The notes beneath the pieces are model-generated. The model ran no database searches. It worked only from the letters and a program-made list of their open reading frames with translations, and was not told the origin of the DNA. Of a stretch of DNA of 60,537 nucleotides, positions 2,361 to 38,770 are shown piece after piece (the stretch's first letter is position 1; the number at the start of each line of letters is the position of its first letter). The position numbers and the translations under genes are program-made. Source of the DNA: Escherichia coli (GTDB taxonomy: Bacteria; Pseudomonadota; Gammaproteobacteria; Enterobacterales; Enterobacteriaceae); NCBI RefSeq assembly GCF_003334255.1, contig NZ_QOWU01000027.1. The stretch is one strand, 5' to 3'.

Positions 2361-5300
2361 ATGGACAAGGAATTACCGTGGCTGGCGGATAACGCCCAAC
2401 TGGAACTGAAATATAAAAAAGGCAAAACGCCGCTCAGTCATCGTCGCTGGCCGGGCGAACCAGTGTCCGTTATCACTGGAAGTCTCATCCAGACATTGGG
2501 TGATGAATTGCTACAAAAAGCTGAGAAGAAAAAAAACATTGTCTGGCGTTATGAGAATTTTTCACTGGAGTGGCAGTCCGCCATCACGCAGGCCATCAAC
2601 TTGATCGGCGAACACAAACCCTCAATCCCGGCCCGGACAATGGCGGCGCTAGCCTGTATCGCGCAAAATGACAGCCAACAGTTGCTCGACGAAATCGTCC
2701 AACAAGAGGGGCTGGAATATGCGACTGAGGTGGTGATTGCACGCCAGTTTATTGCGCGGTGTTATGAGAGTGATCCTCTGGTAGTGACATTGCAGTATCA
2801 GGACGAGGATTATGGCTATGGTTATCGCTCAGAAACCTATAACGAATTCGATCTCCGACTGCGTAAGCATCTCTCTCTGGCAGAGGAAAGCTGCTGGCAG
2901 CGTTGCGCCGACAAACTCATTGCCGCACTACCAGGAATAACCAAAGTTCGCCGCCCTTTTATTGCGCTGATCCTCCCGGAAAAACCAGAAATAGCCAATG
3001 AGTTGGTAGGCCTTGAATGCCCGCGAACTCATTTTCATTCTAAGGAGTGGTTAAAAGTTGTTGCTAATGACCCCACAGCGGTGAGAAAACTCGAACACTA
3101 CTGGAGCCAGGATATATTTAGCGATCGAGAAGCCAGCTACATGTCGCATGAAAACCACTTCGGCTACGCGGCCTGCGCCGCCCTTTTGCGCGAACAAGGA
3201 CTGGCAGCCATTCCGCGCCTCGCGATGTATGCCCATAAAGAAGATTGCGGCAGTCTGCTGGTACAAATTAACCATCCGCAAGTCATCCGCACCTTGCTAC
3301 TGGTGGCTGATAAAAACAAACCCAGCCTGCAACGTGTGGCTAAATACAGTAAAAACTTCCCCCATGCGACGCTCGCCGCACTGGCAGAACTGCTGGCGTT
3401 AACAGAACCACCAGCCCGCCCTGGTTATCCAATCATCGAAGACAAAAAGCTGCCTGCACAGCAAAAAGCACGCGATGAATACTGGCGTACGCTGTTACAA
3501 ACGCTGATGGCATCGCAGCCACAACTGGCAGCAGAAGTGATGCCGTGGTTAAGTACTCAACCCCAGTCAGTGCTGAAGAGTTATTTATCGGCACCGCCCA
3601 AACCGGTTATTGATGGCACCGATAACAGCAATCTGCCAGAAATCCTCGTTTCACCACCGTGGCGTAGTAAGAAAAAAATGACAGCTCCACGTCTTGATTT
3701 GGCACCGCTCGAATTAACTCCGCAAGTTTACTGGCAACCAGGCGAACAAGAGAGGCTTGCCGCCACTGAGCCTGCCCGTTATTTCAGCACGGAATCTCTT
3801 GCGCAACGCATGGAACAAAAAAGTGGACGAGTTGTATTACAGGAACTGGGTTTTGGGGATGATGTATGGCTGTTTCTGAATTATATACTCCCCGGAAAAC
3901 TGGATGCTGCACGCAATTCACTCATTGTTCAGTGGCATTACTACCAGGGGCGGGTTGAAGAGATCCTGAATGGCTGGAACTCCCCGGAAGCACAATTAGC
4001 AGAACAGGCGCTCCGCAGCGGTCACATAGAAGCGTTAATTAACATATGGGAAAATGACAACTACTCACGTTATCGTCCGGAAAAGAGTGTCTGGAACCTG
4101 TATTTATTGGCACAGTTGCCGCGTGAGATGGCTTTGACCTTCTGGCTGCGTATCAATGAGAAAAAGCATCTGTTCGCGGGTGAGGACTATTTTCTCAGTA
4201 TCCTCGGATTGGATGCGCTACCAGGTCTGCTGTTGGCTTTTTCACATCGTCCAAAAGAAACATTTCCGTTAATTTTAAATTTCGGCGCAACAGAACTGGC
4301 CCTGCCCGTTGCCCGCGTCTGGCACCGTTTTGCGGGCCAGCGTAATCTGGCTCGCCAGTGGATTTTACAATGGCCGGAACATACGGCTACTGCACTTATT
4401 CCACTCGTCTTTGTTAAACCCTGCGACAACAGCGAAGCGGCATTATTTGCCCTTCGTTTACTGTATGAACAAGGACATAGTGAATTACTGCAAACGGTTG
4501 CAAACCGCTGGGATCGCGCTGATATGTGGCCAGCCCTGGAAAAAATACTTACCCAGAACCCGATGGAAATTTACCCGGCACGCATTCCAAAAGCCCCTGA
4601 TTTCTGGCATCCGCAAATGTGGTCCAGGCCGCGCCTTATCACTAATAATCAAACTGTTACCAATGACGCTCTGGAAATTATCGGCGAAATGCTGCGCTTT
4701 ACCCAGGGGGGACGTTTTTATAGCGGGCTGGAACAACTGAAAACGTTCTGCCAGCCACAAACGCTGGCAGCTTTTGCCTGGGATCTCTTCACTGCGTGGC
4801 AACAAGCTGGTGCCCCCGCAAAAGACAACTGGGCATTTCTGGCGTTAAGTCTCTTTGGTGACGAAAGCACGGCACGGGATCTGACGACACAGATCCTCGC
4901 CTGGCCACAAGAAGGCAAATCTGCCCGTGCTGTCAGCGGCCTGAACATCCTTACCCTGATGAATAATGATATGGCGCTGATACAGCTGCATCATATATCG
5001 CAACGGGCTAAATCCCGCCCCTTACGTGATAACGCGGCGGAATTTCTTCAGGTGGTCGCAGAAAATCGCGGGCTAAGCCAGGAAGAGCTAGCGGACAGAT
5101 TAGTCCCAACCCTGGGCCTTGATGATCCGCAGGCGTTGAGTTTTGATTTTGGTCCCCGGCAGTTTACCGTTCGCTTCGATGAAAATCTCAACCCGGTTAT
5201 CTTTGATCAGCAAAACGTTCGCCAGAAAAGCGTTCCCCGTTTGCGCGCCGATGACGATCAACTGAAAGCGCCCGAGGCACTGGCCCGACTAAAAGGGCTA

Positions 5301-6483: not shown

Positions 6484-6570
6484 GTTGGAACACGATGTTG
6501 CACAGGCTGTGGTGTTAGGCCTGAAAATAGTAAATAAAAGAACCTGCCTCACCAGCAGGTTTTTTTATTT
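6484..6570 (+). ncRNA. Candidate ~85-nt sRNA or terminated leader transcript upstream of yehL
   Basis: Predicted start ~7 nt after the TATAAT. Internal hairpin CAGGC/GCCTG (6503-6507 / 6519-6523), an A/U-rich linker (6524-6540), and an intrinsic terminator ACCTGC/GCAGGT (6542-6547 / 6555-6560) followed by a T-run (6560-6566). Confidence 0.35.
6542..6570 (+). terminator. Rho-independent terminator
   Basis: 6-bp GC-rich stem, 7-nt loop, then seven T residues; read directly from the sequence. Confidence 0.7.
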
Positions 6571-26953: not shown

Positions 26954-27126
26954 GATGAGCATTCAGATAGTGGTTCACGCGCACGGGTTGCGCACCGCCG
27001 GAGTAAGGATTTACTGAGGCTAGCGACGCCATCATAACGAGCAAAAAGTGCGATCGTCAAAGGAGAATCGTGAGGAAATGCTGCATTGCTGACATTTACG
27101 CCAGCAATGCAACGTCAAAGAACTTT

Positions 27127-29405: not shown

Positions 29406-30842
29406 TCAGCGTTTGTAACCCCCGCCCAACGCACCAGTGAGTTGAATGGAGGCATCCAGCCACTGCCCTTGCAATAACAGGCCATTGGCCCGCTCACGCA
29501 GCGCGGGGATTCTGGCTTCGCTGACGCGGGAACCAGCAATGATGCCCGCGTTAAAGCGCGCCTGCGCAAGACCTACCACACGCAAGGCATCGCGCTCAAT
29601 TTGCGCCTGATGCTGGTTTTTCTCCGCCAGTGTCTGAACCTGACTGGCTGCCCGCGCCACGTCATTCACCGCTTCAACCACCGCTTTGTTGTAGCTGGCG
29701 ATAGACAAGTTGCTTTCGGCTTTTGCGATATCGAGATTGGCGTTAAGACGACCACTATCGAAAATGGGTAGCGTCAGGCCTGCCGTAACGCCCATTTGCT
29801 GCGCGGAATGACGGAACAGATCGCTTAAGTGCAACGCATCCTGTTGCAGGAAGGCCATCAGGTTGATGTCAGGATAAAATGCCGCTTTTGCCGCATCAAT
29901 GGTGCTTAGCGATGACTCAACGTACCAGTGCGCCGCCTGCAAATCTGCCCGCCGGGCCAGTAAGGAGTACCCCAGTTCATCAGGAAGCTGGCTTGCCACT
30001 TTCGGCAACGCGACCGGTTTAAGCTTCAATGACTTTGTCTGGTTATTTGTAAGTGCGCTTAACCGTGCCTCAATAATTTTCATTTTCCCCGCGACATCGT
30101 TGAGCTGCTGCCGGGTTTTGCTGGCATTAATATCGGTTTCCACACCTTCAACTGAAGAAGTAATCCCGTTCTGATATAGCTGGCGATCGGTCGCGATAAT
30201 GGTGTTCTGCTCTTTTTCTATTTGCTGCAAGACCGTGTTTAACGCCGCCTGGGTTTGCCACTCCCAGTACAGGCGGGCTACGCTGCCAGCCAGCAATTGG
30301 CGGGTTTGCTCGCGTTCCGCCGCCCGTGCTTTAACCGTACCCAGGCGGGCAGTAACCTCCGCCCGATTCTTTCCCCAGATATCGAGATGCCAGCCCGCCG
30401 TTAAGCCAAAAGTACCGTTGGTGTACCACGGGCCGGTCGTACCTGCGGCCGGATCGTTCAGAGCAAACGGCCCCATTAAGCCTTCTGCCGACATTTTTTG
30501 CCGCTCCATATCCGCCGAAAAGTCGATCTGCGGACCATCCTGAGTGGCAACTGCCTTCGCCTGGGCTTCAGCTAGCTGAATGCGCTGTTCAGCCACCTGC
30601 ATATCCGGTGCGTTCTGTAGTGCATTGTTAATTAAGGAAGTGAGTTGATTATCGTGATACTCCAGCCACCATTGGCTGTCTGGCCAACCATTTTTCAGCG
30701 CCGTGGGTAATGCGGTGTCAACTTGTGCAGCGGGCGTTTGCTGGCTTAACGCCTGGCGGGTTTCATGCATAGGCGCACACCCGGCCAGCATCAGTAACAG
30801 CGGAAAACAGGCGATGGCTGGATAAAAGGAATCACGATTCAT
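29406..30842 (-). CDS. mdtQ: Outer-membrane-factor (OMF) lipoprotein of the multidrug efflux family, MdtQ (YohG); the reading frame is intact here
   Basis: Lipobox LLMLAGC after MNRDSFYPAIACFP. OMF-family sequence runs through to the C-terminal ALGGGY. 478 aa from the ATG at 30842. The 30-codon upstream extension in the ORF track is unsupported. Confidence 0.82.
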   Translation of the reverse strand: MNRDSFYPAIACFPLLLMLAGCAPMHETRQALSQQTPAAQVDTALPTALKNGWPDSQWWLEYHDNQLTSLINNALQNAPDMQVAEQRIQLAEAQAKAVATQDGPQIDFSADMERQKMSAEGLMGPFALNDPAAGTTGPWYTNGTFGLTAGWHLDIWGKNRAEVTARLGTVKARAAEREQTRQLLAGSVARLYWEWQTQAALNTVLQQIEKEQNTIIATDRQLYQNGITSSVEGVETDINASKTRQQLNDVAGKMKIIEARLSALTNNQTKSLKLKPVALPKVASQLPDELGYSLLARRADLQAAHWYVESSLSTIDAAKAAFYPDINLMAFLQQDALHLSDLFRHSAQQMGVTAGLTLPIFDSGRLNANLDIAKAESNLSIASYNKAVVEAVNDVARAASQVQTLAEKNQHQAQIERDALRVVGLAQARFNAGIIAGSRVSEARIPALRERANGLLLQGQWLDASIQLTGALGGGYKR

Positions 30843-31065
30843 GGGGGAATAATCAGGTAAGAAAAGGTGCGCGGAGATTACCGTGTGTTGCGATATATTT
30901 TTTAGTTTCGCGTGGCAATACATCAGTGGCAATAAAACGACATATCCAGAAAAATATACACTAAGTGAATGATATCTTCCGATTTATCTTAATCGTTTAT
31001 GGATAACGGCAAAGGGCTTCGTTTTTTCCTATACTTATTCAGCACTCACAAATAAAGGAACGCCA

Positions 31066-31149
31066 ATGAAAATTATACTCTGGGCTGTATTGATTATTTT
31101 CCTGATTGGGCTACTGGTGGTGACTGGCGTATTTAAGATGATATTTTAA
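31066..31149 (+). CDS. yohP: Small membrane protein YohP (27 aa)
   Basis: Not in the ORF track. AAGGA lies 7 nt upstream of the ATG. The product MKIILWAVLIIFLIGLLVVTGVFKMIF is a single TM helix. Confidence 0.7.
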   Translation: MKIILWAVLIIFLIGLLVVTGVFKMIF

Positions 31150-31208
31150 AATTAATTAATGTCATCAGGTCCGAAAATAACGAGAATATTTCAGTCTCTC
31201 ATCCTGTT

Positions 31209-31470
31209 GCGCTCCTGTCATGTGCATTGCTTCATATAATCACTGGCGCAAGGAGCGCGCAGGGGGCGGCCAATCGCCGCCGCCCCCTGCACCCCCGGGC
31301 TCTGGCGAACAAAATCGCCGCTGCGCGGTGCCCTCGGCTTATCCCTTACGGCTACCGGGTCGGGCGCGAGGTAACATCCCTGTAAAACGCGCCCTCAGCC
31401 CACATCCATGTGGGCTGCCCCGGCCTTCAGGGAACGCCTCGGCAATTTTGACGCCACCAAACAACCGTGC
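31209..31470. other. GC-rich, multi-hairpin intergenic island between the convergent genes yohP and dusC
   Basis: Inverted repeats GCGCTCCT/AGGAGCGC (31209-31216 / 31251-31258). Hairpins at 31259-31290 (12-bp stem), 31362-31394 (7-bp stem) and 31396-31417 (10-bp perfect palindrome). The flanks are AT-rich. Confidence 0.5.
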
Positions 31471-31521
31471 GGCCTATTGATAAAGAGCTAACACATTGTC
31501 AAAAAACATCACTATGGTTTT

Positions 31522-32469
31522 TTAGAGTTTCTCGATATCAATTGCCTGAATAGCCCTTGCAATATCAGGGGAATTATTCAACACCCGAACATGCTGAAAT
31601 AATTCCGTTGCTTCATCGTATTCTTTACGCAAATAACTCAACCACTGTTTAATCCGCGCAACGTGATATAACCCGGTATCGCCCTGCTTTTCCAGACGGG
31701 TATATTTTTGCAGCAAAGCAACCACCTCCGGCCACGGCATTCGCGGTTCGTTATATTTTACCACCCGGCTCAGGTTGGGAATATTGAGCGCCCCGCGACC
31801 AATCATCACTGCGTCGCAGCCGCTGATCGCCATGCATTGTTGCGCGCTCTGCCAGTCCCAGATTTCACCGTTGGCAATCACCGGAATATTCAGCCGCTGG
31901 CGAATATCGCCAATCGCCTGCCAGTCAATATGCTCCGCGCGGTAACCCTGCTCTTTCGTCCGCCCATGCACCACCAGCTCCGTAGCGCCAGCCTGTTGAA
32001 CCGCATCGGCGATTTCAAATTTCTTCTCACCGCTGTCCCAGCCCAGACGCACTTTCACGCTGACGGGCAAATGCGCCGGTACAGCTTCACGCATCGCTTT
32101 TGCACCCTGGTAGATGAGTTCAGGATCTTTGAGTAACGTCGCCCCGCCGCCGCTACCGTTAACCGTTTTCGACGGGCAGCCGCAATTGAGATCCACGCCC
32201 CAGGAACCTAACTCCACCGCACGGGCGGCGTTCTCTGCCAGCCATTGTGGGAACTGACCTAACAACTGCACGCGCACCAGCGTACCAGATGGTGTCCGGC
32301 TGGCGTTTTGTAGCTCAGGGCAAATGCGATGAAAGACTTTTACCGGCAGCAGTTGATCCACCACGCGGACAAACTCGGTGATGCACAGATCGTAGTCGTT
32401 AACTTCGGTCAGCAATTCACGCACCAGAGAGTCAAGCACTCCCTCCATCGGTGCCAGTAACACACGCAT
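31522..32469 (-). CDS. dusC: tRNA-dihydrouridine(16) synthase DusC
   Basis: DUS-family sequence ([13 protein letters not shown]); 315 aa from the ATG at 32469. Confidence 0.95.
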
Positions 32470-38594: not shown

Positions 38595-38770
38595 GCATCC
38601 GGCATTTGGTTCCTGTCGCCGGATGCGGCTTGAACGCCTTATCCGGCCTACAAAACCATACAAATCAGTATGTTGAGCTTATTGTAGGCCGGATAAAACG
38701 CGCCAGCGTTGCATCCGGCATTTGGCTCCTGTTGCCGGATGCGGCGTGAACGCCTTATCCGGCCTACAAA
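38595..38770. repeat. BIME: a cluster of REP elements in alternating orientation
   Basis: GCCGGATGCGGC(T/G)TGAACGCCTTATCCGGCCTAC occurs at 38618-38651 and 38733-38768. An inverted copy, GTAGGCCGGATAAAACGCGCC..., starts at 38683. The GCATCCGGC...GCCGGATGC hairpin occurs twice. Confidence 0.9.

Follow-up and report, generated by a model that had tools for sequence, protein, structure and literature searches.

Only two sequence elements that program post-replication gaps have been described. One is the replication risk sequence (RRS) of Escherichia coli; the other is the G-quadruplex (G4) associated with pilE in Neisseria gonorrhoeae, which the RRS authors cite as the only other example (PMC11194060). 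The Cox and Goodman laboratories independently found the same pair of elements, RRS-lysO and RRS-dusC, and the RRS authors explicitly equate them with TRIP1 (PMC10287960, PMC11194060), a repeat that was catalogued in Rudd 1999 and re-surveyed by Li et al. 2024 (PMC10888264). TRIP1 occupies five loci, with lengths of 146–273 bp and 62–65% GC, among which TRIP1c is 273 bp long; at the aqpZ and dusC loci it occurs in either orientation, and large chromosomal inversions exist between copies (PMC10888264). The RRS itself is the subject of Pham et al. 2023 and 2024 and of Kusi-Appauh et al. 2026. Here, a stretch of 60,537 nucleotides of E. coli (contig NZ_QOWU01000027.1, assembly GCF_003334255.1), hereafter the window, is analysed, in which a GC-rich island between yohP and dusC is identified by its sequence as TRIP1c, that is, RRS-dusC. 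The repeat is thus already known, and its function has been characterised experimentally at this very locus. As a discovery the island adds nothing, since the repeat was catalogued in 1999 and the replication phenotype was published in 2023–2026. The remaining interest lies in the fold of the whole element, the competition between a hairpin and the G4, the invariant GGA loops, and an apparent kinship with the RNA motif TwoAYGGAY.

The element in the window is 100% identical to positions 2,229,122–2,229,394 of MG1655, collinear and in the same orientation, and 88–94% identical to the copies at aqpZ-lysO and alx-sstT. The homology with TRIP1/RRS extends over the whole ~270-bp unit, and the position, 43–44 bp downstream of yohI (= dusC) and between dusC and yohP/mdtQ, is that of TRIP1c. 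The full-length copies of K-12 are situated at 915,010–915,281 (G-strand plus) and 2,229,122–2,229,394 (G-strand minus), inverted with respect to each other and 1.31 Mb apart; the published RRS pair is inverted and symmetrical about dif, with ~650 kb on each side (dif position per PMC11194060). A preliminary description of the island, made from the letters alone, had listed membership in a less common GC-rich intergenic repeat family among its options, which proved right: a blastn search with 31190–31500 finds the element in 5,426 of 5,426 complete E. coli genomes, and the family member is the one named TRIP1c/RRS-dusC. The same description held that a match to a known dispersed repeat family would leave the island explained and uninteresting. 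The match exists, but the second part does not hold, since the family has an unusual function that has been shown experimentally.

The published replication phenotype is extensive. RecA/SSB peaks of single-stranded DNA on the lagging strand begin at each RRS and vanish upon its deletion (PMC10287960). The G-rich RRS strand blocks DNA polymerases I, II and IV in vitro, and an RRS placed at ectopic sites generates new gaps there (PMC11194060). An engineered inverted RRS produces no RecA peak in vivo and still complements the loss of the other copy; the double RRS deletion survives only with an amplified 200-kb insH7-8 region or with extra RRS copies supplied, and global supercoiling is altered when both copies are lost or inverted (PMC11194060). 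In single-molecule assays (2026 preprint, Kusi-Appauh et al.), a gap is formed at nearly every replisome passage with the G strand as the lagging template, compared with ~66% of passages with the C strand in that place. The RRS authors propose that the gaps are swivels, easing topological stress at the Ter-domain borders.

Within this context, the element of the window very probably acts as DNA, being RRS-dusC, one of the two full-length RRS that the K-12 chromosome contains. As the fork unwinds the RRS, the G-rich strand, here the putative lagging-strand template, would stay single-stranded long enough to fold. The resulting very stable structure would combine a G-run able to form a G4 with a 12-bp hairpin of G and C and a closed domain of several hairpins. 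The lagging-strand polymerase would halt at this fold and restart from the next primer, and a transient gap of approximately 0.3–2 kb would remain, occupied by SSB and RecA. The assignment of the minus strand as the lagging-strand template follows from replication geometry, since the MG1655 coordinates lie on the left replichore, and the MG1655-type orientation agrees with the published lagging-template assignment of the G-rich strand. From the comparisons given below we infer that the whole single-strand fold, and not just the G-run, is under selection, which is stronger for the G-rich strand.

The island is clearly delimited by its composition and gene context. The preliminary description reported a GC-rich block embedded in AT-rich intergenic DNA, lying downstream of two convergent genes, holding four strong inverted repeats and one spurious open reading frame (ORF), and without a match to REP; each of these statements is borne out. 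The block measures ~270 bp (31206–31478) with 64–72% GC against 35–40% outside, as seen in 100-nt windows, where the GC fraction is 0.64–0.72 across 31200–31450 and 0.35–0.40 in both flanks. The yohP gene is situated at 31066–31149 on the plus strand and the dusC stop codon at 31522–31524 on the minus strand, leaving 56 nt between the yohP stop and the element and 43 nt between the dusC stop and the element. The sense (G-rich) strand of the element is the minus strand of the window, co-oriented with dusC. The four inverted repeats are all perfect and stand where they had been placed, and the two longest (12 bp and 10 bp) have 0 chance matches in 100 shuffles. Under RNA or DNA parameters alike, both strands of the island fold better than 200 of 200 dinucleotide shuffles (z scores between −4.4 and −5.9). 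The 86-aa ORF at 31220–31480 is not coding, since single-base indels among the copies break its frame. Even with E values of up to 10 allowed, Rfam places no REP-type or naRNA match on the island. The sole match to naRNA4, a nucleoid-associated RNA derived from REP/BIME, lies off the island at 38687–38764 of the window (minus strand, 88.3 bits) and corresponds to the REP-type repeat mentioned in the preliminary description. Beyond that description, the island is a dispersed repeat, and long-range helices close its two central hairpins into one domain.

The fold is conserved across genera. An alignment of 40 distinct full-length copies from Escherichia, Klebsiella, Pseudocitrobacter and unclassified Enterobacteriaceae yields an RNAalifold consensus of 71 pairs in 13 helices. 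Helix 11, with three pairs, has no covariation support, so that 12 helices are supported. In this alignment 99.3% of the cells are paired, and compensatory changes on both sides occur at 17 pairs; none of 500 shuffles reaches the observed values, and slid controls give at most two such pairs. The fold has four parts, comprising a terminal 8-bp stem, the 12-bp G/C hairpin, the long-range helices and the two enclosed hairpins. The terminal stem (helix 13) is fully rebuilt as CCGTTCAC/GTGAACGG in the type II elements, a group of relatives described below. The G/C hairpin (helix 12) carries compensatory double changes at four pairs, with 99.8% of its cells paired. In hairpin A, the loop CAUGGAUG is identical in 40/40 copies and three stem pairs covary. 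In hairpin B, the outer and inner stems both covary, and the loop takes the form A-N-GGA-Y, in which GGA is invariant and N is G, A, C or U among the 40 copies. Selection thus keeps the complete multi-helix fold and the two GGA loops, beyond the G-run.

Compared with the plus strand, the G-rich minus strand folds more stably in all 40 copies, with a mean of −145.7 versus −132.4 kcal/mol. The consensus fold energy is −106.3 for the minus and −82.0 for the plus strand, and with DNA parameters the window copy reaches −79.9 and −73.7 kcal/mol, respectively. G-U/G-T wobbles also favour the minus strand (78 cells at 14 pairs versus 14 cells at 6 pairs). The plus strand, which a few wobble pairs had seemed to favour as the selected strand, was rejected on the full wobble count together with the folding energies. 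The calculated energy asymmetry matches the experiments, in which both strands block the polymerase and the G strand does so better. Such an asymmetry is equally expected for a folded DNA strand and for an RNA, and cannot tell the two apart. The coordinates of the features are collected in Table 1.

Table 1. Features of the TRIP1c/RRS-dusC element in the window (positions counted from the first nucleotide of the window)
Feature	Position	Strand	Description
Whole repeat unit TRIP1c = RRS-dusC	31206..31478	-	7-copy profile match, 289 bits
Inverted repeat 1	31209-31216/31251-31258		8 bp, perfect
Inverted repeat 2	31259-31270/31279-31290		12 bp, perfect
Inverted repeat 3	31362-31368/31388-31394		7 bp, perfect
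Inverted repeat 4	31396-31405/31408-31417		10 bp, perfect
Terminal stem, helix 13	31209..31258	-	8-bp stem around a variable AT-rich 34-nt loop
12-bp G/C hairpin, helix 12	31259..31290	-	perfect inverted repeat; overlaps the G4 motif
G4-forming 20-mer GGGGGTGCAGGGGGCGGCGG	31277..31296	-	exact match, minus strand only
Core multi-branch domain	31303..31456	-	helices H1-H6 (31303-31359 with 31419-31456) enclose hairpins A and B
Hairpin B	31362..31394	-	loop ACAGGGAUGU on the minus strand (plus strand ACATCCCTGT, 31374-31383)
Hairpin A	31396..31417	-	loop CAUGGAUG on the minus strand (plus strand CATCCATG, 31403-31410)
18-nt direct repeats	31293-31310, 31418-31435 (31293..31435)	.	125 bp from start to start

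The 20-mer GGGGGTGCAGGGGGCGGCGG is the published RRS G4 motif (PMC11194060). It is present on one strand of the island only, and this strand is the one assigned, by replication geometry, as the lagging-strand template. The G-runs at the G4 position are kept in 38 of the 40 copies as well as in the type II relatives. Simultaneously, helix 12, which shares part of this sequence, shows compensation, an example being GGGGGAGGAGG matched by CCTCCTCCCCC; these compensatory changes mean that the C-rich arm is constrained. Since the G-runs are kept in 38/40 copies beside the compensation in helix 12, selection appears to act on the hairpin as well as on the G-run. Compensatory selection thus extends to the very hairpin that competes with the G4.

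The element is more widespread and more variable in number than the K-12 pair. In the complete E. coli genomes it occupies a median of 3 places (range 1–10), the further copies being located in the aqpZ-lysO and alx-sstT intergenic gaps. A pattern scan of one genome per species (185,579 species), together with a plasmid collection, finds copies in E. coli, E. albertii, E. ruysiae and one further Escherichia species, in Klebsiella pneumoniae and K. aerogenes, in Pseudocitrobacter, and in two unclassified Enterobacteriaceae. In the case of K. pneumoniae, there are 9 loci in ATCC 13883 and 13 places in another chromosome, and strain 176 contains a tandem RRS pair downstream of pcaC (L007:2463-2732 and 2900-3169), in the same orientation and 167 bp apart. 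Copies of the E. coli/Klebsiella type also stand on low-coverage contigs of 393–684 bp in Bacillus, Streptomyces and Catenulispora assemblies (L013, L019, L027, L036, L044, L045) and at contig ends in some metagenome-assembled genomes (MAGs; L017, L040, L042); both kinds are most likely enterobacterial contamination. Two further MAG matches were rejected as chance. At the TRIP1d spot, the alx-sstT gap of MG1655 (L011:3547-3944, compared with L005) contains a different GC-rich palindromic repeat, GGGGTGAGGG...CCCTCACCC, which we take to be BoxC-like. This spot therefore hosts alternative repeats, and an empty-site comparison there gave no clean junction, K-12 being filled by the other repeat.

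The orientation of the dusC copy was scored by junction-specific searches in the same 5,426 genomes. The K-12 arrangement (yohP, then the C strand) is found in 3,326 genomes and the opposite one in 2,003 (37%), in line with the two orientations described by Li et al. 2024, so that more than one third of E. coli genomes hold the dusC copy in the weaker orientation. With an inverted copy in 37% of the genomes, the strong-block orientation is not under strict selection. Between the two orientation alleles, the short stretches that separate the element from the genes also differ, which points to the replacement of a ~380-bp cassette, not to a simple flip. Along one K. pneumoniae scaffold, the order of the G strands has 4 sign changes, but would fit a replication rule given 1–2 exceptions. 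The local GC skew in 5–8 kb flanks was tried as an indicator of the lagging template in other species and was abandoned, being too noisy and giving the wrong sign in a known case. Within the element, a 125-bp internal deletion defines TRIP1b (PMC10888264). The two 18-nt direct repeats of the window copy are, from their sequence and spacing, the likely end points of such a TRIP1b-type deletion; a deleted copy in L006 is joined at these repeats.

Several observations weigh against this account of RRS-dusC as a gap-programming DNA. The C-rich arm is not needed by a pure G4 model, which leaves its constraint unexplained. The hairpin and the G4 are mutually exclusive, and either may be the polymerase block. 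The invariant GGA in the two loops is not explained by any model based on folding only. Strains with the inverted dusC allele have the weaker C strand as their lagging-strand template at this locus, and the variable number and sites of the copies fit poorly with a role tied to exactly two Ter-flanking sites. Meanwhile, the topological relief at the Ter borders is at present a proposal.

A second line of comparison leads to TwoAYGGAY (Rfam RF01731), an RNA motif of unknown function (Weinberg et al. 2010) that is known from gut Clostridia and gammaproteobacteria. At curated thresholds, Rfam gives no match on the island. In a loose search, TwoAYGGAY matches 31313–31464 on the minus strand over the full model, with 30.9 bits (E 0.012 in a 1-kb search) against a gathering score of 43, and two other RRS copies reach 31–32 bits, also below that score. 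Matches to AgvB (22.9 bits versus 56), to microRNAs and to small nucleolar RNAs were discarded as chance matches to GC hairpins. The type II elements provide the connection between the two families. In Pseudocitrobacter and the two unclassified Enterobacteriaceae one of them is arranged head to head with each RRS copy (L016:1335-1612, plus; L030:4858-5135, minus; L015:6318-6590, minus; L023:6480-6760, plus) around an AT-rich spacer, from which the G-rich strands diverge. Three of them, scanned against TwoAYGGAY, give 49.2, 45.4 and 37.8 bits, so that two of the three pass the threshold of 43. A sequence profile of the RRS detects the two Pseudocitrobacter type II elements with E values of 2.7e-6 and 7e-4. 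All four align collinearly with the RRS over ~270 nt, with every helix rebuilt from different sequence, and retain both loops and the G-run region (G4Hunter 1.96). In P. vendiensis, the RRS and type II pair (L016:980-1650) is enclosed by 18-bp inverted repeats, TAATGCTGGTCAGTTAAG / CTTAACTGACCAGCATTA, outside which stand 12-bp direct repeats CCCTTACGGGGG; nothing similar is seen at L030. Such bracketing resembles the signature of a transposon, or else of an element inserted into a palindrome.

Since collinear type II elements pass the TwoAYGGAY threshold, the RRS is regarded as a diverged TwoAYGGAY relative; judged by alignment and profile scores it looks like one, while itself staying below the family threshold. 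Set beside the AYGGAY pattern, loop A reads AUGGAU in 40/40 copies, and loop B reads AGGGAU in the window and in K-12, departing from Y at position 2, where C or U stands in some Klebsiella and other copies. Literature searches returned no paper joining the terms TwoAYGGAY and RRS, and the link appears not to have been made before. A stronger form of the proposal is that RRS/TRIP1 is a diverged enterobacterial branch of TwoAYGGAY, in which either the RRS G-strand is also a functional RNA with GGA loops that bind CsrA or another protein, or TwoAYGGAY motifs are themselves gap-programming DNA; this form is speculative and should be held as doubtful. The apparent kinship provides a direct handle on the question of DNA or RNA as the functional form.

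The observations that suggest kinship also bear on whether the RRS could be, additionally or mainly, a structured RNA of the TwoAYGGAY type, made by read-through from dusC, the two GGA loops of which bind a CsrA dimer, so that it serves as a small sponge or as a regulatory or stabilising element of the 3' untranslated region. The full-model match is on the minus strand, the neighbouring type II elements are above the Rfam threshold and collinear with the RRS, and the wobble pairs favour the G-rich strand. The upstream gene is co-directional in 24 of 34 loci, including approximately 13 of 15 in Klebsiella, by crude ORF calls. As in small RNAs that bind CsrA, GGA is exposed in hairpin loops, namely in the two invariant minus-strand loops of the predicted fold, CAUGGAUG and the A-N-GGA-Y second loop. 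The consensus for CsrA from systematic evolution of ligands by exponential enrichment is RUACARGGAUGU, which the RRS loops resemble. CsrA binding by TwoAYGGAY was proposed by Gardner & Eldai (2014). Against this, the parts of the tables of Potts et al. 2017 (PMC5694010) consulted here contain no CsrA peak from cross-linking immunoprecipitation sequencing (CLIP-seq) for dusC or ybjE and none at either RRS, a weak negative, since expression may be low. In Supplementary Data 2 of the same work, the half-life of the dusC mRNA falls from 3.25 min in the wild type to 1.74 min in the csrA mutant (log2 −0.90), which was scored as not significant (PMC5694010). At the lysO copy of K-12, the G-rich strand lies antisense to aqpZ/lysO, and at TRIP1b to putP; no promoter- or terminator-like site accompanies the element, and the RRS copies remain under the Rfam gathering score. 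The covariation and the wobble asymmetry, in turn, are equally expected for folded DNA. An RNA function is accordingly unlikely: it is possible but unsupported, and a role in CsrA binding is a prediction from the loop sequences. The structured non-coding RNA suggested by the preliminary description stands in the same position, being a possible reading of a strongly conserved fold that folded DNA explains equally well.

Two other readings account for less of the evidence. The RRS could act on transcription, either as a barrier or by protecting mRNA 3' ends, for the convergent pair yohP and dusC, comparable to stabilisation of upstream mRNA by REP. Its place 3' of both genes, 43 nt from the dusC stop and 56 nt from the yohP stop, its very stable hairpins, and the location of most copies 16–100 nt after a co-directional gene agree with such a role. 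However, no hairpin followed by a T-run is present, and no intrinsic terminator-like site was found on either strand between 30850 and 31700, so that the bidirectional transcription barrier raised in the preliminary description gains nothing from the search. Moreover, the orientation flips between strains while the flanking genes stay unchanged, and the conserved loops, the long-range helices and the published replication phenotype are left unexplained; this role is extremely improbable. It is also very unlikely that the RRS is a selfish or neutral dispersed repeat, MITE-like or a hitch-hiker of recombination, with the replication effect as a by-product of GC-rich palindromes. Such a repeat would show the observed presence/absence polymorphism and variable copy number, the chromosomal inversions mediated by copies, and the duplication in tandem seen in K. 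pneumoniae; the occurrence of either orientation at one site, between short flanks that are unrelated, suggests replacement or independent acquisition, the TRIP1d site of K-12 is taken by a BoxC-like repeat, REP-like sequence stands beside Klebsiella copies, and one Pseudocitrobacter pair is flanked by 18-bp inverted and 12-bp direct repeats. The window copy, however, lacks the features of a MITE or non-autonomous transposon, with no end-to-end terminal inverted repeats and no flanking direct repeats of a target-site duplication, and no transposase or recombinase gene was seen adjoining the copies. The element has no phage matches, and those plasmid matches that were examined proved to be chromosomal sequence deposited under plasmid records; with the element also conserved across enterobacterial genera, the relic of foreign DNA that had been suggested finds no support. 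In addition, the published conditional essentiality of the RRS pair is not expected of a neutral repeat, and the 17 compensated pairs, with every helix rebuilt in distant relatives, imply long-term selection on the structure.

Elsewhere in the window, Rfam matches include the OrzO-P antitoxin RNA of the zor-orz type I toxin-antitoxin system (6491–6566, plus strand, 99.9 bits) and a Peptidase-S11 RNA motif (26958–27038, minus strand, 72.8 bits). The mdtQ frame (29406–30932, minus strand) is open over 508 codons and is recorded as a frameshifted pseudogene in a K-12-derivative record, so that the window may derive from a strain other than K-12 despite its identical RRS region.

Compared with the known systems, RRS-dusC shares single traits with several. 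A CsrA dimer can bridge sites 28 nt apart, which is the distance between the two RRS sites, and the loop-borne GGA motifs resemble those of CsrB, CsrC and McaS; unlike these RNAs, the RRS has only two exposed sites, a third GGGA being buried in helix 4. Relative to CsrB and CsrC there is, furthermore, no sequence homology, and the RRS lacks a known promoter or terminator as well as any CLIP-seq signal in the tables consulted. REP/BIME repeats are likewise GC-rich, palindromic and intergenic, often located just after genes, and some are transcribed, but REP units measure ~35 bp and exist in hundreds of copies. TwoAYGGAY has the same two adjacent A-N-GGA-Y hairpins within a long outer stem, with the match on the G-run strand; the RRS adds the G-rich hairpin and the terminal stem outside the model, and TwoAYGGAY is described as RNA, whereas the RRS has a demonstrated function as DNA. 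The pilE G4 of N. gonorrhoeae is G-rich too and folds as the DNA is replicated, which sets off a gap or a nick that leads to a programmed outcome. It differs in being short and of canonical G4 form, in depending on the transcription of a small RNA, and in driving recombination of pilin; the RRS extends over ~270 bp, has several hairpins and a non-canonical G-run, and has no known recombination target. With the published RRS/TRIP1, the locus, the 273-bp length, the GC content, the G4 20-mer and the sequence are all the same. The published RRS is described as a 222-bp G4 element, whereas the unit conserved here extends over ~270 bp and includes 12 supported helices, together with conserved loops, that lie beyond the G4 description.

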